NCBI GenBank assembly: GCA_964458605.1
Contig: CAYWLS010000005.1
Location: forward strand, 81,244 to 145,243
Origin: an uncultured Hyphomicrobiales bacterium
GTDB lineage: Bacteria; Pseudomonadota; Alphaproteobacteria; Reyranellales; JAQSWP01
Direction of reading: 5' to 3'
DNA: 64,000 bases
The position numbers were made by a program, and so were the translations under genes. Below the pieces are notes generated by a model. It was not told the DNA's origin and made no database searches. It was given only the letters and a program-made list of their open reading frames with translations. Of the stretch, positions 9,975 through 64,000 are shown piece after piece; the first letter of the stretch is position 1, and every line of letters starts with the position of its first letter.

Positions 9975-10039
9975 CGCTGCCTCCCCGGCGGTTTCCCGCT
10001 ATTGTTGTGGCGATCGCCGCAAGGAGCAACCGTCCCAGC

Positions 10040-40429: not shown

Positions 40430-41677
40430 CTAGAGCTTGATGTTGGTGTTGTACTGCTTGTTGTCGTTGGGGTTCTTGATCAGGTTGCAGACCGCCTCGG
40501 TGTCGGTCGGCTTCTGCTGCGGGAAGCTGGCCAGCACCTTGCACTTCTTGTTCTCGACCTCGGCCATGTAGATGTCGAGGATGCAGTGATGGGTCGGCGG
40601 ATCGATCGTCACCTTGCCCGAGGGGGCGTCGATGCTCAGCCCCTTCTCCAGCGTCTCGATCACCTTCATGCGGTCGATCGACTTGGCCTGCTTGACCGCC
40701 TCGGCCCACAGGTAGAAGCCCTGGTAGGTGCCGACCGCCAGGCCGGTGATGTAGGGGTAGTCGGCGCCGAAGCGCTTGTGGAAGCGATCGACGAAGGCCT
40801 TGTTGGCCGGGGTGTCGATCTCCTGGAAATAGTTGTAGGCGACGACGATGCCGTTGGCCTCTTCCGGCGCCAGCACGATGTGCTCGTTGCCCAGCGCGAA
40901 GGTGGTCGAGGCCATCGGGATCTTCTTGTTCATGCCGGCGGCGGCCCACTGGCGATAGAACGAGATATGCGCGCCGCCGACCAGCGCCGACCACACGTAG
41001 TCGGGCTTGGCGGCCTGGATCTTGGCGATCGACGGGCCGAAATTGGTGACGTCGAGCGGGAAGAACTCCACCGCCACCGTCTCGCCGCCGTTGTCCTTGG
41101 TGTATTTCTGCACCCACTGCGCGGTGATCTGGCCGTAATTGTAGTCGGCGGCGACGATATAGACCTTCTTGCCCCACTTCTTGATGTTGGCCGGCACCAG
41201 CTTCTCGACCTGCTGGGCCGGCGTGGAACCGACGGTGAATTCGTTGCGGTCGCAGACGCCGCCTTCGTACTGGGTGTTGTAGAAATACAGCGTCTTGAAG
41301 CGGTCCAGCACCGGGCGGATCACCTCGCGCGAGGCCGAGGTGATGCCGCCATGCACCACCGCGACCTTCTGCTTCAGCGCCGCGTCCTGGGCGTATTGGG
41401 TGTAGAGCTGCATGTTGGACTGCGGGTCGTAGTTGACCAGCTCGACCTTCTTGCCCAGCAGGCCGCCGGCGGCGTTGACCTCCTCGACCGCGAGCGTGAT
41501 GGCGTCGGACATCGGCTTGCCGTAGATGTCGAGACCGCCCGACAGGTCGTGGATCGAACCGACCTTGATGGTGTCCTCGGCGAAGGCGCGCGAGGAAACG
41601 ATGGCGGGAGCTGCCAGCACGGCGGCCGTGGCGGCGGTGGACTTGAGGAACTGTCTGCGATCGAGCTTGATATCCAT
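40430..41677 (-). CDS. periplasmic substrate-binding protein, urea/short-chain-amide type (UrtA/FmdD-like), Tat signal
   Basis: Twin-arginine signal DRRQFLKSTAATAAVLAAPA..AFA. Type I periplasmic binding fold resembling amide/urea binders. Confidence 0.88.
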   Translation of the reverse strand: MDIKLDRRQFLKSTAATAAVLAAPAIVSSRAFAEDTIKVGSIHDLSGGLDIYGKPMSDAITLAVEEVNAAGGLLGKKVELVNYDPQSNMQLYTQYAQDAALKQKVAVVHGGITSASREVIRPVLDRFKTLYFYNTQYEGGVCDRNEFTVGSTPAQQVEKLVPANIKKWGKKVYIVAADYNYGQITAQWVQKYTKDNGGETVAVEFFPLDVTNFGPSIAKIQAAKPDYVWSALVGGAHISFYRQWAAAGMNKKIPMASTTFALGNEHIVLAPEEANGIVVAYNYFQEIDTPANKAFVDRFHKRFGADYPYITGLAVGTYQGFYLWAEAVKQAKSIDRMKVIETLEKGLSIDAPSGKVTIDPPTHHCILDIYMAEVENKKCKVLASFPQQKPTDTEAVCNLIKNPNDNKQYNTNIKL

Positions 41678-41915
41678 TTGAATGTCACCTTATTGCGGGT
41701 TGGATATGGTGCAGCGTCCCGCCTCGATAATCCAGTGATTCGCGCAGGACATTACGTCTCTCACCGGTGAAATGCGACATGACACAGTTTTGCGTCTGGA
41801 CGACCAGCGCGCGTCGCGACCGCCGACGCTGCGACACCTTGAGGATACGCCGCCCGATGGCGCGCCGCATGGCGCCGCTGCCGAACTGCAATCTCGCCGC
41901 CATTTAAGGGCAGAC

Positions 41916-41940
41916 TATTTTACTTTTCAAGTAATTTTGC
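41916..41940 (+). promoter_or_regulatory. AT-rich operator-like motif, copy 1 (upstream of the ABC/formamidase operon)
   Basis: TATTTTACTTTTCAAGTAATTTTGC matches the copy at 45883..45907 at 23 of 25 positions. Confidence 0.55.
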
Positions 41941-41971
41941 GCCGCGTCGCGAACCGCGCGCCGGCCGCGCC

Positions 41972-43216
41972 TCAATGCGCGGGAAAGCGCTGCAGGATGC
42001 GGAAGTCCAGGCCGTCGGCCTCGGCCAGATAGATATCGGAACGCAGGTGGCGCGCCCGCATCGAGGCGTTGCCGCGCGCGCCGAAACCGGTCAGCCCCTC
42101 GCTGGCCTTGCCCAGCGCGGCGACGTCGAAGGCGCCGGCGCGGCGCACCAGCTCGCCGTAGAGCCGCACGCCTTCGTAGCAGGACTGGCCGATGGTGTTG
42201 GGCATCGGCGCATCGGCGCCGAAGGCGGCGTAGTAACGATCGAGGAAGGCCTCGTTCTCCGCCGTGCGCATGTTGGACAGATAGCCGGCGGCGAAATAGA
42301 GGTTCTCGGCATTGTCGGCACCGATGCCCAGCAGGGTGTTCTCCTCGCTGGCCGCCGACAGGCGCAGCATGTGCCGCGCCAGTCCCGATTCGGCGAAGGC
42401 GCGGTTGAAGGCGACGCAGTCGTTGCCGACCATCGACACCAGCACCGCATCGGCGCGCGACTTGCGAATGGCGTCGAGCGTGGCGTCGTAGTCCTCGGTG
42501 CCGAACGGCACGAAGGTCTCGCCGACGATCTCGCCGCCGTTCTTGGCGACGTAGCGGCGCGCCGCCTCGTGCGACACGCGCGGCCAGATATAGTCGTTGC
42601 CGGCAAGGTACCAGCGCCGCACATGGCGGTGCTCGGCCATCCAGGCGATCGACGGCCGCAACTGCAGCGCCGGCGTCTCGCCGATCATGAACACGCCGGG
42701 GGTCTGCTCGCCGCCCTCGTAGACCGGCGTATAGACATAGGGCACCCGCCCGCGCAGCGCGCGCACCAGCGCCAGGCGCACGGCGCTGATATGCATGCCG
42801 ATCACCGCCTCGGCGCCGCTTTCGGTTACCAGCTTCATGGTCTCTTCGGTGACGATCTCGGGCGAGCAGCCGGCATCGGTGAACAGCAGTTCGACCTCGC
42901 GGCCCTCGATGCCGCCGCGGGCGTTGATCTCCTGCGAGGCCAGCAGCGCGCTGGTCTGGCAGGACGGCCCCCACAATCCGGCCGGGCCGCTGAGCGGCGC
43001 CAGCAAGGCGATGCGCAGCTTGTCGAAACGACGGCGCGGCCCAGGCGTGAAATCGGGATGCAGGCTGCGCCGCGCCAGACGCCGTTCGATCAGCACATTG
43101 GGCGGCACGACGCGACCGGCCGCCGCGCCGGCGATGCCCCGCGCGCCGTTGCCGTGCCACAGCCGGGCCATGTCCCTGGCCGCTCGACCGATCGATTTGC
43201 TGGCCGACATTGCCAT
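41972..43216 (-). CDS. AmiC-like cytoplasmic ligand-binding protein (type I periplasmic-binding-protein fold, no signal peptide)
   Basis: ATG 43216 inside ORF 41972..43378. Leu/Ile/Val-binding-protein-like sequence preceded by a basic, non-hydrophobic N-terminus. Confidence 0.8.
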   Translation of the reverse strand: MAMSASKSIGRAARDMARLWHGNGARGIAGAAAGRVVPPNVLIERRLARRSLHPDFTPGPRRRFDKLRIALLAPLSGPAGLWGPSCQTSALLASQEINARGGIEGREVELLFTDAGCSPEIVTEETMKLVTESGAEAVIGMHISAVRLALVRALRGRVPYVYTPVYEGGEQTPGVFMIGETPALQLRPSIAWMAEHRHVRRWYLAGNDYIWPRVSHEAARRYVAKNGGEIVGETFVPFGTEDYDATLDAIRKSRADAVLVSMVGNDCVAFNRAFAESGLARHMLRLSAASEENTLLGIGADNAENLYFAAGYLSNMRTAENEAFLDRYYAAFGADAPMPNTIGQSCYEGVRLYGELVRRAGAFDVAALGKASEGLTGFGARGNASMRARHLRSDIYLAEADGLDFRILQRFPAH

Positions 43217-43263
43217 GTCGTCCCCGCCCCGTTTGTCAGCAAACCGTAGCACCCGGCTGGATG

Positions 43264-43277
43264 CTTGAAAAGTCAAA
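43264..43277 (-). promoter_or_regulatory. half-site copy of the AT-rich motif in the amiC-like/marR divergent promoter
   Basis: The reverse complement, TTTGACTTTTCAAG, matches TTTTACTTTTCAAG of copy 1 at 13 of 14 positions. Confidence 0.4.
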
Positions 43278-43332
43278 CTCTTTGGCTCATATAGGACGGC
43301 CAAGAGAACCGCCGTAAAAAGCAACCAACGCC

Positions 43333-43806
43333 ATGAAACAAGCCGCCAAGCAAGCCGCCAGGCCCGCCGAGAAATCACCGCGCAACCGCCCGATCGCCGA
43401 CTACCTGGCCTATCTGCTGACCCAGGCCGAGCGGCAGATCAACCAGCGGCTGGACGTCGAATTCAAGGCCGAGGGGGTACCGGTCGAACAGTGGCGCATC
43501 CTCAAGCTGCTGGCCGAGCGCAACGGCCGCTCGATGGTCGACCTGGCGCAGGCGGCGTTGCTGAAGCACCCGACCCTGACCAAGACCATCGACCGCATGA
43601 TCTCCCAGGCGCTGGTCTATCGCCGCGCCGACCGCGGCGACGGACGCAAGGTGCTGATCTTCGTTTCCGAGCGCGGCAAGCAGGTCAACGAGCGGCTCAA
43701 CCGGCTGGCCAATCTGCACCAGGACGAGATTGTGGAAAGCTGCGGCAACCGCGACGCCGAGGAGTTGAAGCGCCTGCTCGAGGGGCTAATCAAAAGGACG
43801 GCGTAA
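43333..43806 (+). CDS. MarR family transcriptional regulator
   Basis: Winged-helix MarR core (WRILKLLAERNGRSMVDLAQAALLKHPTLTKTIDRM). 157 aa. Confidence 0.9.
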   Translation: MKQAAKQAARPAEKSPRNRPIADYLAYLLTQAERQINQRLDVEFKAEGVPVEQWRILKLLAERNGRSMVDLAQAALLKHPTLTKTIDRMISQALVYRRADRGDGRKVLIFVSERGKQVNERLNRLANLHQDEIVESCGNRDAEELKRLLEGLIKRTA

Positions 43807-44273: not shown

Positions 44274-45806
44274 TCACCGCTTCTGCCAATCCCCCAACTG
44301 CTCGACCGCATGGGCGGCGCGGATGGTGGCGGCTTCGTCGAAGTGTTTGCCCACCAGCATGATGCCGATCGGCAGGCCGTCGACCGTGCCGCAGGGCGCG
44401 GTGAAGGCCGGGTGGCCGGACACGTCGAACGGACAGGTGTTCTGCTGCATGTTCAACGCCAGGTCGACATAGTCCTCGCGGCTGGCATCGAGGCCGGGAA
44501 TCTTGGTCGCCGGGAACGGCAGGGTCGGCATGGCCAGCACGTCGTATTTCCGCAGCGCCGCGTCGTAGGCGGCGCGCAGCCCGACGCGCAGGTTCTGCGC
44601 CTTGGCGTGGTAGCGGTTGTGGTAGTGGGTGTGCATGTAGTCGCCCAGCAGCAACACGAGTTTCACCGTCTCCGAGACATCGTCGGCGCGGGCCCGCCAG
44701 CCGCGCGCGAAAGCCTCCTGCAGGGAGGTGGTGTAGTAGCCCATCCAGTTGTTGCCCATGGCGTAGCCCTTGATCATCATCTCGGCCGCGCCTTCCAGGA
44801 TCACCCCGGTCCAGATATGCGGCGCGTCGAGATGCTCGGGGATCGACACCGCCTCGACGATGGCGCCGGCCTTCTTCAATGCCGCCAAGGTCTGCTTCAC
44901 CTTCCTGTCGGTCTGCGGCGTCAGCCTGTTGCCGGTGGGATGGCCGAAACCCTGCGGCAGCACGCCGATCTTCAGGCCCCTGACGCTCTTCTTCAGCGCC
45001 CCGCGATAGTCGCCGACGGCGGCGTTGATGGTGCGCGGATCGTGCGGATCGGGCCCGGCAATGACGCTCAGCAGCAGCGCCACGCTCTCGACGCTGTCGC
45101 AGATCGGCCCGCAGTGATCGACCGAATAGGAGATCGGCATGCTGCCGGTGGTCGGCACCAGGCCCCAGGTGGGCTTCAGCCCGTAGACGCCGCACCAGCC
45201 GGAGGGCGTGCGGATCGAGCCGCCCTGGTCGCCGCCGATCGCCATCGTTACCTCGCCCGCCGCCACCAGCGCGGCGCTGCCGCCGGACGAGCCGCCGGCC
45301 GAATGGGCGGGATTGCGCGGGTTGCGGATCGGCCCGGTGGCGCAGGTGTGGCTGCCGGCGGAGAAGCACAGATCCTCGCAGGCCGCCTTGCCGGCGATGG
45401 TGCCGCCGGCCTCGAGGATGCGCGTCACCACTGTGGCGTCGATATCGGGCACGTAGCCTTCGAGCAGCCGCGAGCCGTTCATCATCGGCACGCCGGCGAC
45501 GCAGATATTGTCCTTGATGGCGACGCGCTTGCCGGCAAGCGGCCCCTTGGCCGCGCCGGCGATGTCGCATTTCCAGTACCAGGCGTTGAACGGATTGTCC
45601 TTCACGTCCGGCCGATGGCCCGGCGTGCGCGGATAGGCGACCGGCAGCTTGGGCTCGGCCAGCTCGTCGAGCCGCGCATAGGACGCCATCGAGCCCGCCA
45701 TCAGGCCACGGAACGACACCGCGTCCTCCTGGGTCAGGGTCAGGCCGAATTTGCGGCCGATGGCGATGAGCTGCTCGGGCGTGGGCAGGCGCGGCGGAAT
45801 GGACAT
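44274..45806 (-). CDS. amidase-signature (AS) family amidase
   Basis: GGSSGGSAA signature and Ser-cisSer-Lys context. 510 aa. Confidence 0.92.
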   Translation of the reverse strand: MSIPPRLPTPEQLIAIGRKFGLTLTQEDAVSFRGLMAGSMASYARLDELAEPKLPVAYPRTPGHRPDVKDNPFNAWYWKCDIAGAAKGPLAGKRVAIKDNICVAGVPMMNGSRLLEGYVPDIDATVVTRILEAGGTIAGKAACEDLCFSAGSHTCATGPIRNPRNPAHSAGGSSGGSAALVAAGEVTMAIGGDQGGSIRTPSGWCGVYGLKPTWGLVPTTGSMPISYSVDHCGPICDSVESVALLLSVIAGPDPHDPRTINAAVGDYRGALKKSVRGLKIGVLPQGFGHPTGNRLTPQTDRKVKQTLAALKKAGAIVEAVSIPEHLDAPHIWTGVILEGAAEMMIKGYAMGNNWMGYYTTSLQEAFARGWRARADDVSETVKLVLLLGDYMHTHYHNRYHAKAQNLRVGLRAAYDAALRKYDVLAMPTLPFPATKIPGLDASREDYVDLALNMQQNTCPFDVSGHPAFTAPCGTVDGLPIGIMLVGKHFDEAATIRAAHAVEQLGDWQKR

Positions 45807-45962: not shown

Positions 45963-47477
45963 ATGACGATCAAGCGCGCCACTTTGGGCCAGTTGCAGGA
46001 CATCGCCCGCGATCTGGGCATCACCATGACCGACGAGCGCGCCGCCGAATTCCTCGGCCTGATGCAGGGCAATTTCGACGCCTACGAGATCCTCGAGCAG
46101 ATGCCGGACTACAAGCCGGTGGTGAAGTATCCGCGCACGCCCGGCTATCGGCCCGAGGGCGCGGAGAACAAATACAACGCCTGGTACGTCAAGAGCACGG
46201 TCAAGGGCGCCGATTCGGGCAAGCTCAAAGGCAAGACCGTGGTGCTGAAGGACAATGTCTGCCTGGCCGGCGTGCCGATGATGAACGGCGCCTCGACCCT
46301 GGAAGGCTACACGCCCGACATCGACGCCACCATCGTCACGCGCATCCTCGACGCCGGCGGCACCATCGTCGGCAAGGCGCATTGCGAATTCTTCTGCCTG
46401 TCCGGCGGCAGCCACACCAACGCCATTGCCCCGGTGCACAACCCGTGGAAGATGGGCCACTCCGCCGGCGGCTCCTCCTCGGGCTCGGGCGCGCTGGTGG
46501 CGGCGGGCGAGGTCGATATGGCGATCGGCGGCGACCAGGGCGGCTCGATCCGCATGCCCTCCTCGTTCTGCGGCATCTACGGCATGAAGCCGACCCACGG
46601 CCTGGTGCCCTATACCGGGGTGATGCCGATCGAAGCCACGATCGATCACACCGGACCGATGACCAAGGACGTGGCCGACAACGCGCTGATGCTGGAGGTG
46701 CTGGCCGGCGAGGACGGACTCGACCCGCGCCAATACGCGCCCAAGGTGCACGACTACACCAAGGCGCTGGGCAAGGACGTCAAGGGCCTGAAGATCGCCG
46801 TGGTCAAGCAGGGCTTCGGCCACGCCAATTCGGAGAAGGATGTCGACGACTGCGTGCGCGCCGGCGCCGCGCACTTCAAGACGCTGGGCGCCACGGTCGA
46901 GGAGATCGACCTGCCGATGCATGCGCTGGGCCCGGTGATCTGGACGCCGGTGGCGCTGGAAGGCCTGCAGGCGCAGATGATGTGGGGCAATGGCATGGGC
47001 TACAACTGGAAGGGGCTCTACACCACCAGCCTGCTCGACGCCCACGCCAACTGGCGCGCCAGGGCCGACGAGCTGTCGGACAGCCTGAAGATCTCGATGT
47101 TCGTCGGCGAATATTTCATCAAGCACTATCGCGGCCACTACTACGCCAAGGCGCAGAACCTGGCGCGCAAGCTGAAGGCGGCCTACGACGCGGTGCTGGG
47201 CCAGTACGACCTGCTGCTGATGCCGACCCTGCCGGTCAAGTCGACGCCGATCCCGCCGGCCGACGCGCCGCTGGCGCTCTACCTGCAGCGCGCCTTCGAG
47301 ATGATCGGCAACACCGCGCCGTTCGACGTCACCGGCCACCCGTCGATGACCATTCCCTGCGGCCTGCGCGAGGGCCTGCCGGTCGGGCTGATGCTGACGG
47401 GCAGGAGCTACGACGAGCCGACCATCTATCGCGCCGCCCATGCCTTCGAGCAGAGCGGCGACTGGAAGAAGATGTAA
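45963..47477 (+). CDS. amidase-signature (AS) family amidase (paralogue of 44274..45806)
   Basis: ATG 45963 with GGAGGGA RBS, in frame within artefact ORF 44214..47477. GGSSSGSGA signature. Confidence 0.92.
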   Translation: MTIKRATLGQLQDIARDLGITMTDERAAEFLGLMQGNFDAYEILEQMPDYKPVVKYPRTPGYRPEGAENKYNAWYVKSTVKGADSGKLKGKTVVLKDNVCLAGVPMMNGASTLEGYTPDIDATIVTRILDAGGTIVGKAHCEFFCLSGGSHTNAIAPVHNPWKMGHSAGGSSSGSGALVAAGEVDMAIGGDQGGSIRMPSSFCGIYGMKPTHGLVPYTGVMPIEATIDHTGPMTKDVADNALMLEVLAGEDGLDPRQYAPKVHDYTKALGKDVKGLKIAVVKQGFGHANSEKDVDDCVRAGAAHFKTLGATVEEIDLPMHALGPVIWTPVALEGLQAQMMWGNGMGYNWKGLYTTSLLDAHANWRARADELSDSLKISMFVGEYFIKHYRGHYYAKAQNLARKLKAAYDAVLGQYDLLLMPTLPVKSTPIPPADAPLALYLQRAFEMIGNTAPFDVTGHPSMTIPCGLREGLPVGLMLTGRSYDEPTIYRAAHAFEQSGDWKKM

Positions 47478-47547: not shown

Positions 47548-47847
47548 TCAAAGCCGCTGCGATAGGCGGGCTTTGGCGTGGCGGTCTCTCCAGACGCGCT
47601 CGAACGCCTCGCGGCTGATTTCGACGGGCTCAAATACCGGATTGCTGGCGATCTCGGCAAGGGGCGGCACCGGATAGACGCCTAGACCGGTATCGCCGAC
47701 TTCTCCGGTCGCATCGGCATAGCCGCAGCTTCCATCGGCATGAAGCTCGACCTTGCGAACCTCATAGCGCTCCTCGTCCAGCTCGCTATAGAGCCAGACC
47801 GGCAGATCGGCGTCGGAATGGATCCATTTGACCTTGATATCGCGCAT
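47548..47847 (-). CDS. hypothetical 99-aa protein
   Basis: Clean ORF in lower-G+C DNA with an AT-rich divergent promoter shared with kptA. Function not recognised. Confidence 0.6.
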   Translation of the reverse strand: MRDIKVKWIHSDADLPVWLYSELDEERYEVRKVELHADGSCGYADATGEVGDTGLGVYPVPPLAEIASNPVFEPVEISREAFERVWRDRHAKARLSQRL

Positions 47848-47894: not shown

Positions 47895-48444
47895 ATGGCC
47901 AAGACTGACGAATCGCTGAGCAAATATCTCAGCTACATCCTGCGCCACCGGCCCGACGAGATCGGGCTGCAGCTCGATGGGCAGGGTTGGGCCGCGGTGG
48001 CGGAACTGCTGGCCAAGAGCGCGGCGCACGGCCGCCCTATCGACTTCGGCGCTTTGGTGAATGTCGTCGAGAACGGAGCCAAGAGCCTCGTCCTTGTCCG
48101 AAAACCGGACTCGGATCCGCGCATTGCAAGGGCATTCCGTCCCGATCGAGCTTGGCTTGCAGCCGGTGCAGCCGCCCGCGCTTCTGTACCACGGCACCGC
48201 CTTGAAGTTTCTCGATTCGATCCTGCGGACAGGGCTGGCGAAACAGGCGCGCCATCACGTCCATTTGTCGAGCACGCCGGACAGCGCCTGGATCGTCGGG
48301 CGCCGACGCGGCAAGGCCGCGATACTCCAAATACAGGCGGAACGGATGCACCGCGACGGTTTTGCGTTCATGCGAGCCGAGAACGACGTCTGGCTGACCG
48401 ATGCCGTGCCGACGAAGTATTTCAAACTGCTAGCTCAAGATTGA
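47895..48444 (+). pseudogene. kptA: RNA 2'-phosphotransferase KptA/Tpt1, interrupted by a single frameshift
   Basis: The N-terminal part is in the 47895 frame (LSKYLSYILRHRPDEIGLQLDGQGWAAV..VVENGAK). The remainder is in the 48061 frame (SENRTRIRALQGHSV..LLYHGT..HHVHLS..NDVWLT). The junction lies near 48075..48095. Confidence 0.8.
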
Positions 48445-48553
48445 GCCGCGGCGGCGATAGTGGACTCTGGCGATAGTGGACTCTAGAGCCCGACGCTCGC
48501 TTCAGGAACCGACTTTGTCACCCCCCGCATCAGCGTTTTGACCTCCGCCCGCT

Positions 48554-48904
48554 TCATGATAAGCCGAACTGGGCCTTGAATTCGCTCTCGCTGATGACGC
48601 TGACGGGTAGAAACAGCGACTTGTCGTCGGGATCGCGCAAGCCATCGATGTTCAACATGTGCGGCGTCGGCGGATAGGTGCACACGACCTGGGCCACGAA
48701 CGCTTTGCCCGCCAGATCGGGATTGTCCTTGGCCGCGCGGCCGGCTTCGGCGAAGTGCATGCACAGCCCCGGCTTCTTGTGTAGCAGTTCCTCACGCTCA
48801 CGCGGATCGCCGATCGGCTCGTTGTCGAAGATCACCAGCGCCAGGCGGTGGTCGTCGTTGGGCAGCCGCACCACCATGTCGATCGCATCGCTTCTCAGGC
48901 TCAT
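48554..48904 (-). CDS. immunity-like small protein (paralogue of 60865..61257)
   Basis: 116 aa. Shares the identical 13-mer QVVCTYPPTPHML and a C-terminal E.F.AQFG motif with 60865..61257. Downstream of the toxin-like gene. Confidence 0.7.
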   Translation of the reverse strand: MSLRSDAIDMVVRLPNDDHRLALVIFDNEPIGDPREREELLHKKPGLCMHFAEAGRAAKDNPDLAGKAFVAQVVCTYPPTPHMLNIDGLRDPDDKSLFLPVSVISESEFKAQFGLS

Positions 48905-48952: not shown

Positions 48953-49714
48953 TCAATACCGATCGCGCAGCGACGGCAGATCGCGCGGCACGAAGCCATG
49001 ACGCTCTCGGAATTCGGCCTCGGTCACGAACTCGACCGGCAACACGATATCAGGGTATGTCGGATCGCTTACCGATGTGATCGCGCGCATTGCCGGGGTC
49101 GGCATCGCGGCATAGACAACTTCGATCAACGGCCTATCGCTAGAGAACACATAATTATATTCCTCGAAGTCCCCCGAGGCGACACGAGCGGCGCAGCGCA
49201 GCAGCTTTTCATGCAGCGTTGCCTCTCGCTGTGCGGCGCTGGCCACTCGGCCGTCATCCAGCACTACAATAGTGCCGCCGAGTTGCTGGCCCTTGACGTG
49301 CACAAGGAGATCTCCGGGAGATCGCCCGATCCACGTCAGCCATTCGACGCCCAGCTTGATCCGTTGCTGAACCTCATTTAGGGACAAAATTGTATACGAC
49401 TCGTTACCGGCCCAGACATCATCCCATGCTGGTAAGTGGAGCAGAAGAGGATCAGGACTTCTTCCTCTATAGGCCAATTGCGTGATGAACGGCCGAGGCG
49501 TCCCTGTCGCCGTTGCTAGATTTGCACGATCTTCGGGCAAGTCCCACTCAGATTCGGGCTCGCCGTCAAAATAGAGTTCCAGCCACGCCAAGTCATCAAC
49601 ATTACAATGCAAGACATTATTCCATGCATAGGTTTCTCCAAAATTCCGAAAGCACGCCGTAAGGACGCCGATATCCAGCGGCTTTTTGGAGAAGAAGAAA
49701 AAAGAGTTCGCCAC
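48953..49714 (-). CDS. immunity-like protein, fusion of two domains found as separate genes at 61257..61655 and 60865..61257
   Basis: 253 aa. The N-half aligns to the 132-aa ORF (NESYTILSLNEVQQRIKLGVEW vs NEYGVIFTVREIQRRLKSGEEW). The C-half aligns to the 130-aa ORF (EAEFRERHGF vs LEGFYAQFGM). It begins 15 nt after the toxin stop. Confidence 0.7.
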   Translation of the reverse strand: MANSFFFFSKKPLDIGVLTACFRNFGETYAWNNVLHCNVDDLAWLELYFDGEPESEWDLPEDRANLATATGTPRPFITQLAYRGRSPDPLLLHLPAWDDVWAGNESYTILSLNEVQQRIKLGVEWLTWIGRSPGDLLVHVKGQQLGGTIVVLDDGRVASAAQREATLHEKLLRCAARVASGDFEEYNYVFSSDRPLIEVVYAAMPTPAMRAITSVSDPTYPDIVLPVEFVTEAEFRERHGFVPRDLPSLRDRY

Positions 49715-49729: not shown

Positions 49730-52384
49730 TCACTTAAATTTATCCAATAAATCCTGACGATTTTTGATAGGTGTATGGCCTTTACCAGCGATAGATTTCT
49801 CCGCGTGCCCCATATTGCGACTATACCCAATCCCGGGCAATCCAGACACACTCACCGCGCGATCAAGTTGCTCCGCAAGTCCACTGGCGCTGCTGCTTTC
49901 TTCAATGACATATTTCCTCGTGACGATATCAACTTCTTTTCTTAAAAGCGGGTTGTTCAAATCGATGATGAAGCAATGCACGCAGACCACTTCGTTTGGG
50001 TGGTTTTTCTCAATCTCATTGGCGAGCCCGGCTACTCGGCGCTGTGACCTGTTTTGGCCTGCATCAATCGCCGTTGCTTGAAATGATCTCGTGCCATCTG
50101 CACTACGCACTTCGCTGCCCTTATCCGCCCGCCAAAGAAACTGGCCAGGTGATTTTGTCGAAGTCGAAGGCATCGGCAACAGAATCGTATCGGGCTTGTA
50201 AGCTGCGGCAAATTTCGCCACATCCGCTTCGGTCTTGATCAAGCCTGCCGACTGAAATGCCTTCATCTGGTCGGCGAAATCGACATGGTAAGCCGGATCG
50301 ATGGCGCGCTTCCATGCCGCCGCCGGACTACCCCATCCGGGCAGCGGCGGCGTTGGGCTTGGCAATGGTCTGCGCGGCGCACCCGGCGGCAGGTCAGTTG
50401 ACGGCTTCGCCCCCGCCGTCACACCCGGCTGCCCGACACTCCCCGGAGATTGACCACCCGGGCTCGGCTGCCCGGACGACGACGATGCAGCACTCGCTGT
50501 ACCTGGCTTTCTCGGCGGCACCGCAGCGGACCCGCCACCGCCGCTGTCGCCGCCGGCCGGGGCGCGGGCGATGCGGCTGCCGAAGCCGCCCATCATTCCC
50601 AGGCCGAAGCCGGTGAAGCCAGCCATCAGCGAATCGATGCCGATCTGAGACCAGGGCACTTCCTCGCCCCATCGCTCCCGCCATGGCTTGGTCAGCGATT
50701 CGCTGGCGGCGGTCTTTGCGCTGACCGCCGCGCCGGTCTTCAGGGCGTCGAGGGCGATTCTTCCGCCCTGCGTCTTGACGACGTTGGCGAGTTCGCCGCT
50801 GCCGATCGCCCGCAGCACGCTGGGAATGCCGATCCGGGCGATGTTGAAGATCTGCTTGCCGGCCATCCCCAGCGGAACGATGTTGGTCGGGTCGCTGACG
50901 AAGCCCAGCGTCTTGCCCGCCGCGCGAATGAACGGATCGTCCGGCGCATGGCCGATCTGATAGATCCGGTCTTGCATGGCGTCGAACAGGTCGGCCTTGG
51001 CTCGCGCTCGCTCCCGCGTCATGAACGGCTCGAACGGCATGGCGCGCTTCAGCTCGGGATCGTTGTTCCACTCCTCTTCGGTCAGGAACTCCACGCCCAT
51101 GCCGCGCAGCGCCTGTTCGATTTCCGCCTGCTTGGCCTTTCGCTGGTCTTCCGGCAGCGCCGCCAGGTACGACGCGAAGCCCTGCCGCACGTCGATCGGC
51201 CAGGGGAAACTGGCGATCTGGTCGGGCTTGCGCTCCCCGTTGAGGACGAGGCCGTAGAGGCGCTTCGTCTTCTCCGCGTCGAGCTGCTGGATTGCCGAAG
51301 GCGGCAAGGCGATCTCGTCGAGACCGCGGCCAACCCATTGGTGGAAGCCTTGCCCTATCTCGGCGCCGAAATAGCGAAAAGTCGGCGCCACATAAGGCTT
51401 GCTGTTCACAACGGCTTCGATATCGCTTGCCGACACCGTCGAGGCTGGCGCCGGCGGCGCAGCGGGTGACGGCGGCGACGCAGCCGTCGAGCCGCTGGCC
51501 GGGATGGTCGATGGATGGTCGCCATCGCCGCTGGCGATCGGACCGATGTCGCCGCCCGGAGGCGTGCCAGCGGCGCCGCCACCGGCGATGTCGTCGCCGC
51601 TGTCCTTGGCAGCGATATAGTTGGCGCCGGCATCGGTGACGGCGGCGAGCCTGGCATAGGTCGCCGGATCGACCTGGCCGGCGGCCTGGGCCAGCACGAT
51701 CCGCGCGCCGGGCACATTGCCGCTGTCGAACTGGCTGGCGATCGCCGCGCCGAACAGATGGCCGTTCCATTCGCTGGCGCGGCGATTGGTTTCCTGCGCG
51801 CTCCAGCCGTTGCGCTGGCCGATCTTGCGCCATTCGCCATCGCCGCGCGCCACCGCCAGATCGAGCCGGAACGGATCGTGGCTCCAGTAATGCGCATCGT
51901 GCAGATCGGCCGCCAGTGTGCCGAGCGATCCCAGGTCGAGCATCTGGCGATGCTGGCCAATGCGATAGCTTTGGCCGTCCTGCAGGTGCTCCTCATGCGC
52001 CTGGTCCAGGCGCGGCTGCAGCAGCGGCAGCACTGCCGGCGAAACGCTGGCGATGGCCTGGTCGCGATGGCTTTCCAAGGTGTTTCGATAGGTGTCGTAG
52101 GCGTCGGCCGCGCCGTTCTGGCCGCTCTGGCTGCCGTAATCGCCCAGCGCCGTCAGCGCGGCGCGGCGATAGACGTTCAGCGCGTCGTTGGCGGCGCTGT
52201 CATTGGCCCTAAGACGTCGGTCGAGCGAATAGGTGCGGTACGGGTCCGGCCCGGCCGGAGCGGTGCCGGACGAGACCGGATCGAACGGGATGATGTCGGT
52301 GCCGGGATCGAGGGCGGTGTCGGGATCGGGAGGGGCGAAGATAAGGGCCATGCGCGTCGCGAGCGTTGGATGGGGTCCGCCCAT
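49730..52384 (-). CDS. large modular polymorphic-toxin-like protein (toxin A), 884 aa
   Basis: Modules: an N-terminal region, a core shared with 61663..63282 (MPFEPFMT.., DPTN.., Gly-rich hydrophobic stretch), Pro/Ser/Gly linkers, and a low-G+C C-terminal domain homologous to the C-terminus of 61663..63282. An alternative start lies at 52351. Confidence 0.75.
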   Translation of the reverse strand: MGGPHPTLATRMALIFAPPDPDTALDPGTDIIPFDPVSSGTAPAGPDPYRTYSLDRRLRANDSAANDALNVYRRAALTALGDYGSQSGQNGAADAYDTYRNTLESHRDQAIASVSPAVLPLLQPRLDQAHEEHLQDGQSYRIGQHRQMLDLGSLGTLAADLHDAHYWSHDPFRLDLAVARGDGEWRKIGQRNGWSAQETNRRASEWNGHLFGAAIASQFDSGNVPGARIVLAQAAGQVDPATYARLAAVTDAGANYIAAKDSGDDIAGGGAAGTPPGGDIGPIASGDGDHPSTIPASGSTAASPPSPAAPPAPASTVSASDIEAVVNSKPYVAPTFRYFGAEIGQGFHQWVGRGLDEIALPPSAIQQLDAEKTKRLYGLVLNGERKPDQIASFPWPIDVRQGFASYLAALPEDQRKAKQAEIEQALRGMGVEFLTEEEWNNDPELKRAMPFEPFMTRERARAKADLFDAMQDRIYQIGHAPDDPFIRAAGKTLGFVSDPTNIVPLGMAGKQIFNIARIGIPSVLRAIGSGELANVVKTQGGRIALDALKTGAAVSAKTAASESLTKPWRERWGEEVPWSQIGIDSLMAGFTGFGLGMMGGFGSRIARAPAGGDSGGGGSAAVPPRKPGTASAASSSSGQPSPGGQSPGSVGQPGVTAGAKPSTDLPPGAPRRPLPSPTPPLPGWGSPAAAWKRAIDPAYHVDFADQMKAFQSAGLIKTEADVAKFAAAYKPDTILLPMPSTSTKSPGQFLWRADKGSEVRSADGTRSFQATAIDAGQNRSQRRVAGLANEIEKNHPNEVVCVHCFIIDLNNPLLRKEVDIVTRKYVIEESSSASGLAEQLDRAVSVSGLPGIGYSRNMGHAEKSIAGKGHTPIKNRQDLLDKFK

Positions 52385-57224: not shown

Positions 57225-57497
57225 CTAGCGGGCGGCGGCGAGCTTCCTGATCTCGGCCATGTTGGCCTGGCAGGCATGCAGCGCCGCCAGCGCGATCTCA
57301 ACCACCGCGGCGGCGTCCTTCTGCGTCGCGATCGGCCGGGGCGCGGGGTCGTCGGGGCAGACCAGCAGCGCCTGGGGGATGGTGACGCGCTCGACTTTAG
57401 TGACGACGATCGGCGGCGCAGGCTGGGGCGTGCCACAGGCGGCTAAAGGAAGCGCACAGCACATCGGCCACAGGGCCATCCTGCTCGGGCGGCGCAT
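57225..57497 (-). CDS. o-spanin (Rz1-like outer-membrane lipoprotein), overlapped with the i-spanin gene
   Basis: Signal and lipobox ALPLAAC followed by a Pro-rich mature part. The gene starts inside the 3' end of 57397..57813 in another frame. Confidence 0.7.
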   Translation of the reverse strand: MRRPSRMALWPMCCALPLAACGTPQPAPPIVVTKVERVTIPQALLVCPDDPAPRPIATQKDAAAVVEIALAALHACQANMAEIRKLAAAR

Positions 57498-57813
57498 TCT
57501 GGATCTCCATCAGGCGTTGGTTGAGATCGGCGTTCTCCTGCTGCAGCCGGACCAGCCGCGCCGCGGTGGCGGCATCGGTCATCGCCTGCCAGGCCTTCAG
57601 CGCGGCGATCGCCTGCCGTTGCTCGAGCGCGGCCTGGGCGGCGATGCGCGTGCGGTAGTCGGCGAACGCCGCGCGCTGCTGCGCCAGCGCGCTGTCGCTG
57701 CGCTGCAGGCGCAAGGTCTGCACGCCCAGCAGCACGGCCAGCGCGATCAGCGGCCATAGCCAAAGCGGCAGCTTGCGCACCGCGGCCAGCGCAAGAGACA
57801 GGCTCGCGCTCAC
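57397..57813 (-). CDS. i-spanin (Rz-like)
   Basis: GTG 57813 overlaps the endolysin-like stop (GTGA). N-terminal TM LPLWLWPLIALAVLLGV is followed by a coiled-coil-like Ala/Gln/Arg-rich region. Confidence 0.7.
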   Translation of the reverse strand: MSASLSLALAAVRKLPLWLWPLIALAVLLGVQTLRLQRSDSALAQQRAAFADYRTRIAAQAALEQRQAIAALKAWQAMTDAATAARLVRLQQENADLNQRLMEIQNAPPEQDGPVADVLCASFSRLWHAPACAADRRH

Positions 57814-58589
57814 GACGTCGCCCTGGCCGGCCGGTTCTTCTGGCGCTGCAGCCACCAGTGCCAGGCCAGGCCGGCGGCGATCAGCGCCAGCAGCGCCACC
57901 CCGCCCCATTTGAACAGATAGCCGTATTGCTGCAGGAACGTCTGGCCGCGCTCGATGACGACGCCGGGATCGATCGGCGCCGGGATCGACCCCGGCGGCG
58001 CGGCCGGCAAGCCGGGCAGCGGCGGCGGATAGGTCGGCGCGATCGCGCTGCCGGTGGCGGCAGCGGTTGCCGCAGCCGCGCCGGCGGCCGGCGCCATCGT
58101 GCCCAGCGGCCTTGGCGGGCGCAGCACGCCGTATTGCGCCAGGCCCCAATCGATCTGCTGGTCGTTCCACCAGCGATAGGGATCGCCGCCCTGCTCGACC
58201 GCGGCCATCGCCAGCAGCACCGGCTTGAGATGCGCGTAGCGATGGAAGTCGAGGACGGCGTTGGCGGCAAAGCCGGTGGCGCCCGTCACGCGCGCGATAT
58301 AGGCGGCGGTGTCGTTGCGATCCTGCGGCGGCGCCCAGCCCGGCCGATAGTCGGGCTGGCCGTAGCTGCCGCTGCCGCCGATCAGCGTCGCGATGGTGTC
58401 GTGGCCCCAGCGGTCGTAATGGGCGATCACGTTGCCCGCCGCGCAGCGCCAGCCCTTGGCCGGCCCGTCGAAATGCAGGAAATCGCCGGCGCCGGTGTGT
58501 TCGACGGCGATCACGCCTTGCCATTTGCTGCGGCCATCGGGTCGCACATTGAGCGGATTGTTGAAGCGCACGCCGGAAGGAAGAGCCAT
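57810..58589 (-). CDS. putative endolysin-like protein with C-terminal TM anchor
   Basis: Positioned between the holin-like and spanin genes. N-terminal RFNNPLNVRP..W.G motif, a Pro/Ala linker and a C-terminal TM WGGVALLALIAAGLAWHWWL. Enzymatic class not established. Confidence 0.5.
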   Translation of the reverse strand: MALPSGVRFNNPLNVRPDGRSKWQGVIAVEHTGAGDFLHFDGPAKGWRCAAGNVIAHYDRWGHDTIATLIGGSGSYGQPDYRPGWAPPQDRNDTAAYIARVTGATGFAANAVLDFHRYAHLKPVLLAMAAVEQGGDPYRWWNDQQIDWGLAQYGVLRPPRPLGTMAPAAGAAAATAAATGSAIAPTYPPPLPGLPAAPPGSIPAPIDPGVVIERGQTFLQQYGYLFKWGGVALLALIAAGLAWHWWLQRQKNRPARATS

Positions 58590-58597: not shown

Positions 58598-60309
<1,712 letters not shown>

Positions 60310-60443: not shown

Positions 60444-60750
60444 TCATGGCGGCGATCCAATTCGCCAACGGCTTGGACCAGGCGGCAAAGACGTGCTGGG
60501 TATTACCGCCGATGCCCCGGCTTCCGAGCAGCGGTGCATCACCGTCCGCAACGGCGCCCCGCCGATGCCGGCCAGCGCATTGTCCGGCAGCGATGCCGCG
60601 CCATGAACTGCCCCGGCAGCGAATGCCACCAGCCGTCGCCGAACTTCGCCGCCAGGTACTGGCCCAGCGGCGTCTCGTAATCCGTCAGCGCCTGAAAGTA
60701 CCCCCCGCATCCGCTACACGATCGCTCTCGATCGGATCAAGCAGGTCCAC
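60444..60750 (-). pseudogene. decayed duplicate of the 5' end of toxin B
   Basis: 60545..60750 aligns nearly base-for-base with 63068..63282. ATG is replaced by GTG, and single-base indels cause frameshifts and an early stop. Similarity decays with indels down to about 60444. Confidence 0.8.
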
Positions 60751-60864
60751 CAGCCCGGCCCCTCATGCTCGAAGCCGGCAACACAACGATATTTATGCCC
60801 GGCACTTTGCTCATCGACCACTCGATAGTCGCAACCATCGAGTGATACCAGAACAGCCGCTGCA

Positions 60865-61257
60865 TCAGGTCGGGTTTCGTTCCACAGATTGCGCCGCGCC
60901 GGGCGGCCTCATGCCGAACTGCGCATAGAAACCCTCGAGGCTCATCACCTCGACCGGCACGATCACCGACTTGTCCTCGCGGCTGCGCAACGCATGGATC
61001 TCCAGCATATGCGGTGTCGGCGGATAGGTACAAACTACCTGGATCACCGCCGCCTTGCCGACCACGCTGGCGTCGAAATTCTCCATGGCGCCCGACGTGA
61101 TGATCTTGAGATAGCCGGCGAGCTTCCTGTGCAACAATTGCTCACGCTCACCCGCGTCTGCGATCGGCTCGGCGTCGAAGATCACCATGGCGATACGTCC
61201 GTCTTCGTCCGGCAGCCGCACCGCCATGTCGAGATTGGTCGGTTCGTTCAATGCCAT
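60865..61257 (-). CDS. immunity-like small protein (B2)
   Basis: ATG 61257 overlaps the upstream TAA by 1 nt (TAATG). Paralogue of 48554..48904 (QVVCTYPPTPHML). Confidence 0.7.
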   Translation of the reverse strand: MALNEPTNLDMAVRLPDEDGRIAMVIFDAEPIADAGEREQLLHRKLAGYLKIITSGAMENFDASVVGKAAVIQVVCTYPPTPHMLEIHALRSREDKSVIVPVEVMSLEGFYAQFGMRPPGAAQSVERNPT

Positions 61258-61655
61258 TACAGGAACTCCTCGCCGACCGTCTCCCACTCCTCGCCGGATT
61301 TCAGGCGACGCTGGATTTCCCTTACAGTGAAAATCACGCCGTATTCATTACAAATGAATAAATTATCAGTAGCTGGAAGCCGGCTGACCGCTAAGTTAAC
61401 TGACACCGAGTTTCTGAACGGTAGACCCGCAAAAAAAGGGCGACCAATCAAAGCGAGTAATCTGACCTTCTCATCTGGTTCGAATTCTGCCAGCACAGAA
61501 TCCGTCCCTCCCAAATCGATATGAAACCAACCCCAGTCATCATTCTGAACCACCAACCTTTCACCATAAACCGCAGCTTTGCCAATATCGTGGTACAGAT
61601 CGGCAAGGGCGGGCAGGTCAAGATCTCTCTCGGAAACAATGATCATCTCTTTCAT
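61257..61655 (-). CDS. immunity-like small protein (B1)
   Basis: 132 aa in low-G+C DNA. Starts 7 nt after the toxin B stop. Homologous to the N-half of 48953..49714. Confidence 0.7.
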   Translation of the reverse strand: MKEMIIVSERDLDLPALADLYHDIGKAAVYGERLVVQNDDWGWFHIDLGGTDSVLAEFEPDEKVRLLALIGRPFFAGLPFRNSVSVNLAVSRLPATDNLFICNEYGVIFTVREIQRRLKSGEEWETVGEEFL

Positions 61656-61662: not shown

Positions 61663-63282
61663 TCATGGTTTGATAACCTCTCTGAGCAGCTTTTCGTCTT
61701 TGGTCACCAGTCCCCCTGCATTGCCAATGCCTCGAATGATGCTAGGACCCAAATCTGGTCCATAGCCGATAGTCGGAAAGCCAGTTAGCTTTTCGTACCG
61801 TAATACTTGATGGGTAAGTTTTCCGCCTGTTCCTGCTTTTACCTGGATCACTGCATTGCGAGTCAAGATATCGATTTCTCCTACTTTATCTCCAGTATGC
61901 GGGTCGATTAGCTCGCAATTAGTGCAAACGACATGTCCCGGATTGTCCCGCTCGATTTCATTGGCGCGGTCAGCTACATGCTTATCGGTCGACGCAAAGC
62001 TTCGTCTGCCATCCTTGCCGATGCTGATCGGGGTCGTTTCCTTTAGCACGAGTTTAGGAGAGGTTATGCCCTTGGCATAGTTGGCCATGCCAAAATGTAC
62101 CTGGTCGGCCCGATATTTGTAGCCGTTGTCGATGAAATCTTGAATAGCGACACCAAACAATTTGTGTTTGTCTGCCAGACTCATCTGATCGAGGAGTTGT
62201 TCGATAGGCGTATTGCCTAATGCACCGGTCACCCGTGCGCCGGATTTTGCAGGAACAGAAGCTACTGAAAGTTGTTGGCTGGTTACTCCGCTCATCCCCG
62301 CAGGTGACTGCGTCGGTACAACGGTGTTTGGGCCTAGCCCAGATGCATTAGCCAAGGGATTTCCTGGAGTAACGCCACTTGGCATGCTCTGAGTTTGTAA
62401 TGAAACTTTCCCGCCAACCGGCTCCTGGGGCGACCGCAGGATGCGGACACCATGGGCGCCCGCGCCCACCACGCTGCCCAGCGCCGCCGCCAGCCCCGCA
62501 TTGCGCCAGATCTCGCTGTCGCTTAGCGTCTCGCCCCAGCGCGCCAGCGGCTGCTTGATCGCATAGCCCTGCACCACCGCCGGCAGCGCGCCGCTCAGCG
62601 CCCCGATGCCGCCAGCCTTCGCCAGTGTCAGGCCACCGGTACGCGCCAGCCCCAGCACCAGCTTGCCTCCCGCGCCCCAGCCCAGCAGGTTGGTCGGGTC
62701 CGCCGCGCCCCCCGCCATCCCCGCCAGGAACCCCAACGTGCCGCTCAGCACGCCATCCGGCCGATGCGCGATCAGCCAGTCCCGCACCCGGTTGGTGTCG
62801 TAGATCGCCGCCTTCGCCTTGGCCCGCGCCGGCGTCATGAACGGCTCGAACGGCATGTCCCGATAGTCCGGCGACGCCCGCCACTCGGCCTCGGTGTAGA
62901 ACCTGTAGCCCGCCTGCTTCAGCACCTGCTCAACCTGCGGCAGGACCTGCTGCCGCTGCCCCGCCGGCAGGGCGTTCAACCGCTCCATGACCAGGTCCTG
63001 CGGCAACGGCGTGCTGGGCATCGCCACCGACGCCCCCGGCTGCCGCGCGGCCACCGGGATCAGGTGCATCACCGTCCTCAACGGCGCCCCGCCGATACCT
63101 GCCAGCGCATTGTCCGGCAGCGATGCTGCCGCCATGAACTGCCCCGGCAGCGAATGCCACCAGCCGTCGCCGAACTTCGCCGCCAGGTACTGGCCCAACG
63201 GCGTCTCGTAATCCGTCAGCGCCTGAAAGTAGTCCCCCGCATCCGCCACACGATCGCTCTCGATCGGATCAAGCAGGTTCAT
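61663..63282 (-). CDS. polymorphic-toxin-like protein (toxin B), 539 aa
   Basis: ATG 63282 overlaps the stop of the upstream gene (ATGA). The core is homologous to toxin A. The low-G+C C-terminal domain has ANEIE, VVCTNC and EIDILTRNAVIQVK motifs. Confidence 0.75.
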   Translation of the reverse strand: MNLLDPIESDRVADAGDYFQALTDYETPLGQYLAAKFGDGWWHSLPGQFMAAASLPDNALAGIGGAPLRTVMHLIPVAARQPGASVAMPSTPLPQDLVMERLNALPAGQRQQVLPQVEQVLKQAGYRFYTEAEWRASPDYRDMPFEPFMTPARAKAKAAIYDTNRVRDWLIAHRPDGVLSGTLGFLAGMAGGAADPTNLLGWGAGGKLVLGLARTGGLTLAKAGGIGALSGALPAVVQGYAIKQPLARWGETLSDSEIWRNAGLAAALGSVVGAGAHGVRILRSPQEPVGGKVSLQTQSMPSGVTPGNPLANASGLGPNTVVPTQSPAGMSGVTSQQLSVASVPAKSGARVTGALGNTPIEQLLDQMSLADKHKLFGVAIQDFIDNGYKYRADQVHFGMANYAKGITSPKLVLKETTPISIGKDGRRSFASTDKHVADRANEIERDNPGHVVCTNCELIDPHTGDKVGEIDILTRNAVIQVKAGTGGKLTHQVLRYEKLTGFPTIGYGPDLGPSIIRGIGNAGGLVTKDEKLLREVIKP

Positions 63283-64000
63283 TGCGGCAGCCCATCGATG
63301 GCGTAGCTGGGGAGCTGATACTGCGCAGGGTAGCCCAATAGCATCCCGGGAGGCAGCACCGCCCAATCGCGGTGCTCCTTGCCGAGCGCCAGCACTTGAT
63401 CAAGTGTGAAGACGAGCGGGCGGCCGGTTTCGTCCGGCAGCAACTTGCCGCTGCTCAACACCAACGCATATTCGCCGTCCTTGCCGCTCTTGAAATCGAT
63501 CCAGCGGGCCTTGGCGCTCTCTTGCGCTGCCGTTGCTTTGGCCATTTCCACCAGTTGCGAATCATCCTCGGGCAATCGCTTGAGGAAGTAGTTGGCGATC
63601 AGTTGGCCGCGCAAATAGTGAAATCCTTGAATCAGGCGTTCTTTATCCCCTTCCGCCGCCCGAGGAATGAATGCCGCCACCAAATTCTGATCGATCAACG
63701 GCACACGATCGCCCATCACCGCGCCAATTCCCGCGCCTGGATCGGGCCGATCGCGCGCTACATTGGCGATCATCGTCGCTTCTTCTATGCCCCTGTTGCG
63801 ATAGTCTTCGTTATGCGTCCATTGTGTCGTCATCTCGTAAACGGCAAAATATGGCGCAAACGGACTCATCTTGCGAAGCAGGTCGGCATGCTCGTCTGGG
63901 CTCAGCTTATGATGGGCGACGATGCTGGATTGAAGGAGATCCAGGGCTCCATCCTCATTGCCGCGACCGGCGGCCTGCACTATGTAGGGCAGCGTCTTGG
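63279..64000 (-). CDS. hypothetical protein translationally coupled to toxin B, 5' end outside window
   Basis: The reading frame is open to the window edge. No family recognised. Confidence 0.6.
   Translation of the reverse strand, partial: KTLPYIVQAAGRGNEDGALDLLQSSIVAHHKLSPDEHADLLRKMSPFAPYFAVYEMTTQWTHNEDYRNRGIEEATMIANVARDRPDPGAGIGAVMGDRVPLIDQNLVAAFIPRAAEGDKERLIQGFHYLRGQLIANYFLKRLPEDDSQLVEMAKATAAQESAKARWIDFKSGKDGEYALVLSSGKLLPDETGRPLVFTLDQVLALGKEHRDWAVLPPGMLLGYPAQYQLPSYAIDGLPQ

Follow-up and report, generated by a model that had tools for sequence, protein, structure and literature searches.

A window of 64,000 nucleotides (nt) from an uncultured Hyphomicrobiales bacterium of the Reyranellales (contig CAYWLS010000005.1, positions 81,244 to 145,243; all coordinates below count from its first letter) carries two related genes, called here toxin A and toxin B. 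An original prediction, made from the letters alone, had proposed that the two proteins end in a shared domain, possibly a nuclease of the PD-(D/E)xK type. Open reading frames (ORFs) and their translations place the toxin A gene at 49730..52384 and the toxin B gene at 61663..63282, both on the minus strand. The two peptides quoted in the prediction are indeed present, that of toxin A in 49730..52384 and that of toxin B in the ORF 61663..63366. Their strand had been missed: the plus-strand frames at the same coordinates are full of stops, and a plus-strand reading is ruled out. Toxin A is a protein of 884 amino acids (aa) consisting of an N-terminal part of 330 aa, a carrier domain resembling phage ejection proteins (50585..51394), a Pro/Gly/Ser linker and a C-terminal domain that has a restriction-endonuclease (REase) fold (49733..50125). 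Toxin B is built of a carrier domain similar to podovirus internal-virion or ejection proteins (62422..63282), a linker and a REase-fold C-terminal domain (61666..62031). Its start is most likely the ATG at 63282, because the resulting length of 539 aa equals that of P0009, a database protein that matches toxin B at the N-terminus and in the pre-toxin region. With the stop codon of the upstream gene, this start forms an ATGA overlap.

The two toxins align over about 570 residues with 28% identity (E=2e-43). The aligned region includes the central domain, which contains the motif MPFEPFMT and corresponds to the carrier (31-34% identity between the carriers of A and B). The C-terminal domains alone, about the last 120 residues, are 38% identical (E=3e-18). 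The toxin A gene call was also found on an independent Logan contig (L001). Toxin A as a whole matched nothing in Pfam, NCBIfam or PHROG, and single-sequence searches with the toxins in Pfam, NCBIfam and PDB sequences returned nothing. Two word-indexed protein searches were equally unproductive, probably as low-complexity words swamp them: full-length toxin A returned only itself, and the carrier alignment returned no match. Exact-sequence contig look-ups for toxin B and for the protein P0007 gave no record.

An exhaustive profile search revealed that the C-terminal 120 or so residues of A and B belong to one family. The number of cluster representatives (clusters counted at 50% identity) is 610 at E<=1e-3 and falls to 94 at E<=1e-30. 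In 150 of the 150 matches listed, the domain lies at the C-terminal end. Six matches came from a word-indexed search with the toxin B domain, and in one of them the domain follows the end of an Rhs core. Scanning 149 members with Pfam identified PT-HINT (11 members), RHS repeats (7) and RHS (3) as N-terminal partners; PAAR, SpvB, ALF (single members) and LRR were also found. No Pfam family covers the C-terminal domain itself, either in these 149 members or at E<=10 on 36 trimmed domains, and NCBIfam likewise has none. We built a hidden Markov model (HMM) from 146 other members, leaving out A, B and the metagenomic orthologue P0001. This model scores toxin B at 134.5 bits and toxin A at 51.9 bits (E=3e-18). 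Since it was built without A or B and still matches both, their similarity is well beyond chance, and the shared family that had been proposed is confirmed. The domain thus belongs to a large, uncurated family of polymorphic-toxin warheads.

The family signature reads E...DxD-x8-QxK...Q and corresponds, in toxin B numbering, to E444, D469-x-D471, Q480-x-K482 and Q492. The Gln is invariant (149/149 members), and D471 and K482 are nearly so (Asp in 148 and Lys in 147 of the 149). The E444 column holds Glu in 125 members and Asp in 14, the D469 column Asp in 130 and Glu in 19, and the Q480 column Gln in 140 and Glu in 9. Further conserved positions are S431/D433, P448-G449, N455, G464, Y507 and P509. 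Toxin B retains all 19 of the columns that are conserved in at least 88% of members, and so carries the complete catalytic signature. Two details of the original prediction have to be corrected. The spacing, given there as D-x9, is actually D-x8-(Q/E)-x-K. The CxxC described as a conserved motif (C453 and C456) occurs only in A, B and P0001, while the rest of the family has G/D/A and V/K/I at these positions. With only three sequences and both cysteines inside one beta strand (beta-1 of the model), a zinc or disulfide motif is ruled out; the CxxC is lineage-specific and no family motif.

The proposed PD-(D/E)xK fold is supported by AlphaFold2 models of both domains and by their structural neighbours. 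The toxin B model, computed from a 36-sequence alignment, has a mean predicted local distance difference test score (pLDDT) of 94.3 and a predicted template-modelling score of 0.87; the toxin A model has the same topology and a pLDDT of 92.3. In both, the elements run beta-beta-alpha-beta-beta-beta-alpha-beta-alpha-beta-alpha, an order that includes the core of the restriction-endonuclease fold, alpha-beta-beta-beta-alpha-beta. In toxin B, DSSP assigns strands to 2-4, 10-12, 34-42, 49-57, 61-64 and 87-90 and helices to 17-29 and 72-83. The conserved residues fall where the fold would lead one to look for them: the first core helix carries the Glu, core strands 2 and 3 carry DxD and QxK, respectively, and the invariant Gln lies on the helix that comes next. 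More precisely, strand 61-64 holds the Qx with the Lys at 65, and helix 72-83 holds the Gln. The catalytic pattern D...(D/E/Q)xK on core strands 2 and 3, together with the helix-1 Glu, is found in toxin B and in 147 of the 149 members, but not in toxin A.

Foldseek searches of the PDB with the toxin B model returned NucS (2vld), EndoMS (5gke) and Card1 (6wxw) at the top (probability 0.97-0.99, E=0.015-0.03), followed by EcoT38I, Bax1, Ecl18kI, LHK-Exo and BstYI; the best matches are without exception PD-(D/E)xK nucleases. With toxin A, the matches were Can2 (8bao, E=2.5e-3, probability 0.99) and Card1 (6xl1). Query-normalised TM-scores were about 0.5-0.6. A structure search in BFVD gave restriction endonuclease, RecB-family, DUF559 and PD-(D/E)XK proteins with probabilities of 0.97-1.0. 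These models suggest that the domain would cut nucleic acid, most likely DNA, by means of a metal ion that the ANEIE-helix Glu, the D-x-D of the second core strand and the Q-x-K of the third would bind. The best structural matches share with the toxins the same minimal PD-(D/E)xK core. NucS/EndoMS, Card1 and Can2 differ from them in that identity is only 11-19%, without sequence-detectable homology, and in being enzymes of repair or of CRISPR-ancillary function that possess additional domains for sensing or dimerisation.

Toxin A is a true but eroded member of the family, as the model built without A, B and P0001 still gives it 51.9 bits. It keeps 10 of the 19 conserved columns, the lowest count among the 149 members, the full-length ones of which keep at least 15. 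Its substitutions are D433Q, G449N, N455H, G464N, Q480E, V481E, K482S, G484S and P509R. The Ser that had been noted in place of the catalytic Lys is recovered in a MAFFT alignment; the HMM alignment places a Glu there after a one-residue deletion, so that either way Lys is missing. Toxin A is the sole member of the 149 aligned without Lys at this position, except for the short fragment P0138, which also deviates there. In the metagenome contig L008, a protein whose carrier is 60% identical to that of A ends in a C-terminal domain with a normal E-x-K (VVEIKTG). The loss of Lys in A is therefore derived. This 508-aa protein (26..2007 of L008) is the best comparator available for a loss of activity in toxin A. 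The toxin A gene lies in a 5-kb island devoid of phage structural genes, about 5 kb from the end of a prophage. It is probably a decaying or functionally altered copy, derived from an earlier phage or element and kept with its immunity genes, and its product is predicted to be inactive.

Both toxin genes are followed on the minus strand by small genes of two kinds, X and Y. Locus B has the order toxin, X, Y, and locus A the order toxin, X-Y fusion, Y. X_B (61257..61655, 132 aa), directly downstream of toxin B, is its predicted cognate immunity protein. Y_B (60865..61257) is a DUF6572-like protein, listed as an ORF of 140 aa from a GTG at 61287, which likely starts at the ATG at 61257. In locus A, tblastn within the window identified a fusion protein of 253 aa (48953..49714) with X as its N-terminal half (X_A) and a DUF6572-like Y as its C-terminal half, and the stand-alone Y_A (48554..48904, 116 aa) follows. 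X_B is 29% identical to X_A (E=3e-13) and Y_B 28% identical to the C-terminal half of the fusion (E=1e-10). Y_A and Y_B share 53% identity (E=5e-40), Y being better conserved than X. The expectation that the diverged toxin domains would each be paired with their own immunity protein thus holds, each toxin having its own diverged immunity gene.

In the unrelated contigs L004 and L006, a gene of matching size comes after the family toxin; the profile of these proteins aligns with that of X over the full length (hhalign probability 91.5%, E=8.7e-7). An X homologue is also found downstream of the toxin in L008 (blastp E=9e-14). Because X homologues follow family toxins twice in the window and in L004, L006 and L008, X constitutes a conserved cognate immunity family. 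It matched no Pfam family at E<=0.1, and hence none of the Imm49, SUKH or Imm52 models. Encoded directly downstream, X would bind the toxin domain and block it. The presence of a second small gene has a precedent in phage-borne toxins with two immunity genes (PMC11699363).

Y_B scores 25.3 bits (E=1.9e-5) and Y_A 19.5 bits (E=0.0012) against DUF6572 (PF20212). In Streptococcus suis, DUF6572 is the conserved C-terminal appendage of otherwise variable type VII secretion system (T7SS) immunity proteins; it is dispensable for neutralisation and recruits the effector to the secretion ATPase (PMC12558993). The loci described here share with this EIC-CR/DUF6572 appendage of the S. suis T7SSb the combination of a variable immunity protein and a conserved DUF6572-like module, fused in locus A and encoded by adjacent genes in locus B. 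As this layout of variable X and conserved Y matches that of the S. suis proteins, Y would sooner serve as an adaptor or loading factor than neutralise the toxin. Here, the score against the Pfam model falls short of the gathering cut-off (25.3 against 27 bits). In addition, the host is of Gram-negative type, with a high guanine-plus-cytosine (GC) content and no T7SS, in contrast to S. suis, and the partner of such an adaptor would have to be a phage component.

GC content changes abruptly along both loci. It is 48.5% in the C-terminal domain of toxin A, 49.6% in that of toxin B, 48.6% in X_B and 55.5% in the X-Y fusion. The linker of toxin B stands at 51%, the carriers at 66-71% (71% for that of toxin B) and the whole window at 67%. 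The similarities of the carriers and of the C-terminal domains also read as mosaic: the carriers of A and L008 are 60% identical, while their C-terminal domains are only 22% identical, compared with 38% for those of A and B. On the minus strand, between Y_B and the tail fibre gene, tblastn and the direct repeats D4, D7 and D9 revealed a decayed carrier-gene relic (60470..60752), which corresponds to the first 280 nt or so of a toxin-B-type gene. In this copy, 87-97% identical to 63048..63281, GTG replaces the ATG and two frameshifts interrupt the frame. This relic is a scar of the rearrangement that installed the toxin/immunity cassette. Toxin and X would thus be exchanged by recombination as a low-GC cassette that is grafted onto the C-terminus of a carrier.

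Toxin B is part of a prophage, where its gene is flanked on one side by that of an internal virion protein and on the other by genes for the tail fibre and lysis, all on the minus strand. Its only PHROG match, which is also the only one of the two toxins, is phrog_342, annotated as internal virion protein with endolysin domain (E=1.1e-7). Upstream, the ORF that overlaps the toxin B start by ATGA (63279..64000) is the 3' end of an internal-virion-protein gene that runs off the window. Downstream lies a tail fibre gene with collagen-like G-X-Y repeats (58852..60288), which matches PHROG tail and tail-fibre families with E-values down to 2e-23 as well as Pfam Gly_rich_2. Within this gene, a run of a 9-nt periodic repeat (59528..59833, 74% GC) encodes the collagen-like Gly-X-Y triplets. 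It is followed by an endolysin gene (57810..58589), which matches phrog_873 (E=6e-26) and, by tblastn, phage endolysins at 32-35% identity. A LysC/Rz1-like lysis protein (57225..57497; Pfam PF23793, E=7.4e-10) marks the end of the prophage late region. No transfer RNA gene was found in the window, so no attachment site of this kind was seen.

The carrier could be followed into other phage modules. When one genome per species was scanned, only one relative came up, in a prophage of a Rhodospirillales metagenome-assembled genome (MAG; L002); its best tblastn segment is 41% identical. This homologue (10001..11914, 637 aa) also matches phrog_342 (E=1.3e-8); for both proteins the match spans only about 110 profile positions. 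In L002 it is preceded by a T7-gp14-like internal virion protein (phrog_418) and an 830-aa internal virion protein with an M23 peptidase, and the gene after it encodes a virion structural protein of 870 aa (phrog_684, E=2e-142). In the window, the ORF upstream of toxin B resembles the C-terminus of the 830-aa protein (23% identity, E=1e-13), and its ATGA junction with the carrier gene is common to locus B and L002. A metagenome scan added two contigs. In L007, the carrier is identical to that of L002 at 52% of its N-terminal 254 aa and 36% of its last 53 aa, with an unrelated middle, and is followed by a phrog_684-type protein 53% identical to that of L002. L008 combines a carrier with a REase domain and X. 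The L002 homologue contains the RNase-like domain PBECR3 in its C-terminal half (28.9 bits, E=1e-6) and is followed by no immunity gene. Since the carrier is associated with PBECR3 in L002, with an unrelated middle in L007 and with REase and X in L008, it bears interchangeable payloads. On the basis of the profile match and of these gene orders, the N-terminal carrier probably belongs to the podovirus internal-virion (ejection) proteins. The L002 homologue ends in a short conserved tail (EEAY..A..CV(L/I)R), which it has in common with L007 and which is missing from the toxins of the window. The N-terminal 330 residues of toxin A (51395..52384) have no counterpart in toxin B, L002, L007, L008, Pfam or PHROGs, and in particular resemble neither the L002 internal virion proteins nor the gene that lies upstream of toxin B.

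The explanation that we favour, and consider rather probable, is that a REase-fold polymorphic-toxin domain and X form a cassette carried by a podovirus ejection protein, which phage particles deliver to cells lacking X. Ejection proteins of phages enter the target cell. Toxin B would be made late, kept inert by X and packed into the capsid as one of the internal virion proteins, to be ejected into the next cell along with the phage DNA. In that cell, the nuclease would attack DNA unless X is present. Lysogens, as well as the producing cell during assembly, would be protected by X. This mechanism follows the logic proposed for MuF toxins (PMC5576092, PMC11699363), applied to a protein class known to enter the target cell. 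Delivery by a type VI secretion system, by contact-dependent inhibition or by Rhs proteins is rejected for this genome, since no such domains were found on A, B or the scanned neighbouring genes. A wider proposal is more tentative, and we regard it as possible but doubtful: the loci might represent a new class of phage-delivered polymorphic toxins in which the ejectosome protein is a modular syringe for interchangeable warheads, REase-fold here and PBECR3 in a relative. Y would then load the toxin-immunity complex into the capsid, and temperate podoviruses would act as kin-discriminating weapons of lysogens.

Several observations weigh against delivery of a nuclease by phage particles. The carrier assignment is based on one moderate PHROG match and on synteny in one MAG and two metagenome contigs; searches of 50,697 GenBank phages and of IMG/VR gave no match for the carrier or for the C-terminal domain, and the prophage is cut by the end of the window. 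The carriers of L002 and L007 are not accompanied by an immunity gene, so that the payload there may be of another kind, for instance anti-defence. Toxin A has no phage genes around it and no catalytic Lys, and Y stays under the Pfam threshold for DUF6572. As to the predicted enzymatic activity, Foldseek E-values are modest (1e-3 to 3e-2), no solved polymorphic-toxin REase is among the top matches, and the AlphaFold2 alignments of 36 and 19 rows could have imposed the family fold on toxin A.

Some of these points would fit a role of the toxins in infection itself. Like the early effectors of the polyvalent-protein type, the ejected nuclease might degrade the DNA of the host or of competing elements, and X would only silence it in the producer until packaging. 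Indeed, the genes belong to a late structural module, and the L002 homologue, after which no immunity gene is found, bears PBECR3, a domain defined in phage polyvalent proteins (PMC5512222). We nevertheless hold this role to be unlikely. The same pair of domain and X occurs elsewhere on Rhs, PAAR and HINT toxins, which are classic weapons between bacteria, a nuclease ejected with the phage genome would endanger that genome too, and a toxin/immunity pair has been kept outside the prophage, in locus A. It is still less probable that both loci are leftovers whose toxins are no longer delivered, with only X and Y mattering, as protection against related toxins of neighbours, and toxin A being an inactive relic. 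The low column count and lost Lys of toxin A, its position away from phage genes, the decayed carrier relic adjoining locus B and the frameshifted RNA 2'-phosphotransferase (Tpt1) gene within the A island would all agree with such decay. However, neither toxin ORF is disrupted (884 and 539 aa), toxin B has kept every conserved residue, and its gene is translationally coupled to that of an internal virion protein in a late operon with tail fibre and lysis genes.

A last alternative concerns the domain itself, which might be a binding or inhibitor module, or a PD-(D/E)xK-fold protein with a non-nucleolytic role. It stems from one weak profile match in PDB sequences, to the PepSY propeptide domain of 9vy3 (E=3e-4, profile positions 12-69). 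This match spans half of the domain and is contradicted by the fold searches, which over the whole domain return only nucleases at high probability. Both structures contain helix-plus-hairpin motifs, and we take the match as a local helix-hairpin resemblance; the PepSY assignment was rejected. As invariant acidic, Lys and Gln residues occupy canonical catalytic positions and a dedicated immunity gene accompanies the domain, a function other than that of a nuclease appears very improbable.

A nuclease warhead on an ejection protein would be a toxin of a familiar type carried by a new phage vehicle. The fold itself is ordinary, and REase-fold toxin domains are well known. To our knowledge, MuF is the only described phage carrier of polymorphic toxins, and its delivery route is still unproven. 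The restriction-endonuclease-fold toxin domains of polymorphic toxin systems have been classified as Tox-REase-1 to -10 (Zhang et al. 2012, PMC3482391). Like them, the present domain is a C-terminal warhead on Rhs, HINT and PAAR proteins with a small immunity gene downstream, and has a D-(E/Q)xK site, with Glu upstream of it and Gln downstream. The pattern E, D, ExK, Q(,Y) of Tox-REase-1, -6 and -7 resembles E...DxD...QxK...Q...Y here. Unlike in the published Tox-REase domains, the residue before the x-Lys is Gln rather than Glu in 94% of members. A profile scan with the five Pfam models Tox-REase-2, -3, -5, -7 and -9 gave no match at E<=1 for A and B, at E<=0.001 for the 149 members or at E<=10 for the 36 trimmed domains. 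Tox-REase-1, -4, -6, -8 and -10 were compared by their published signatures only, the nearest pattern being that of Tox-REase-6 (E, D, ExK, Q, Y). The PT1 and PT7 DNases of Nachmias et al. are not this family, being His-based enzymes of a different fold.

Among phage proteins, the closest parallels are the MuF toxins (Jamet et al. 2017, PMC5576092; Apk2; Bxa, PMC11699363). Both groups are prophage-encoded, join a conserved N-terminal virion domain to variable C-terminal toxins and are followed by one or two immunity genes, with packaging into the capsid as the presumed delivery. The toxins of the window differ from them in having no Phage_Mu_F domain (Pfam) on either full-length protein, an ejection-protein-like carrier encoded before the tail fibre gene, and a REase-fold payload. 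Polyvalent proteins, found in phages and conjugative elements (Iyer et al. 2017, PMC5512222), are likewise virion-delivered multidomain proteins with nucleases such as PBECR, and the PBECR3 of the L002 homologue recalls them. In contrast to these, the proteins of the window carry a single warhead borrowed from polymorphic toxins, together with dedicated immunity genes.

The interest of the loci is moderate and lies in the use of an ejection protein as carrier, in an uncurated toxin family that comes with an immunity family, and in the arrangement of X and Y. Curating the family of 610 clusters together with X would improve the annotation of many Rhs, HINT and PAAR toxins. A toxin fused to an ejection protein makes toxin delivery by phage particles directly testable, and locus A is a natural example of a warhead that has no catalytic lysine while its immunity genes persist.

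Other genes were noted in and around the toxin A island. At its far end, a 99-aa protein (47548..47847, minus strand), also called as a gene in L001, matches DUF6881 (Pfam PF21812, E=5.5e-33) and could be another orphan immunity-type gene. Between this gene and Y_A lies a gene for an RNA 2'-phosphotransferase (Tpt1/KptA; 47895..48476, plus strand). One frame encodes its N-terminal 60 residues and the ORF 48061..48444 the remainder, and the gene looks like a frameshifted pseudogene. Beyond the island, two amidase-family genes stand back to back (44274..45806 on the minus strand and about 46200..47477 on the plus strand). Next come the gene of a MarR regulator (43333..43806) and two genes for periplasmic binding proteins (40430..43378), in what looks like ordinary chromosomal context.

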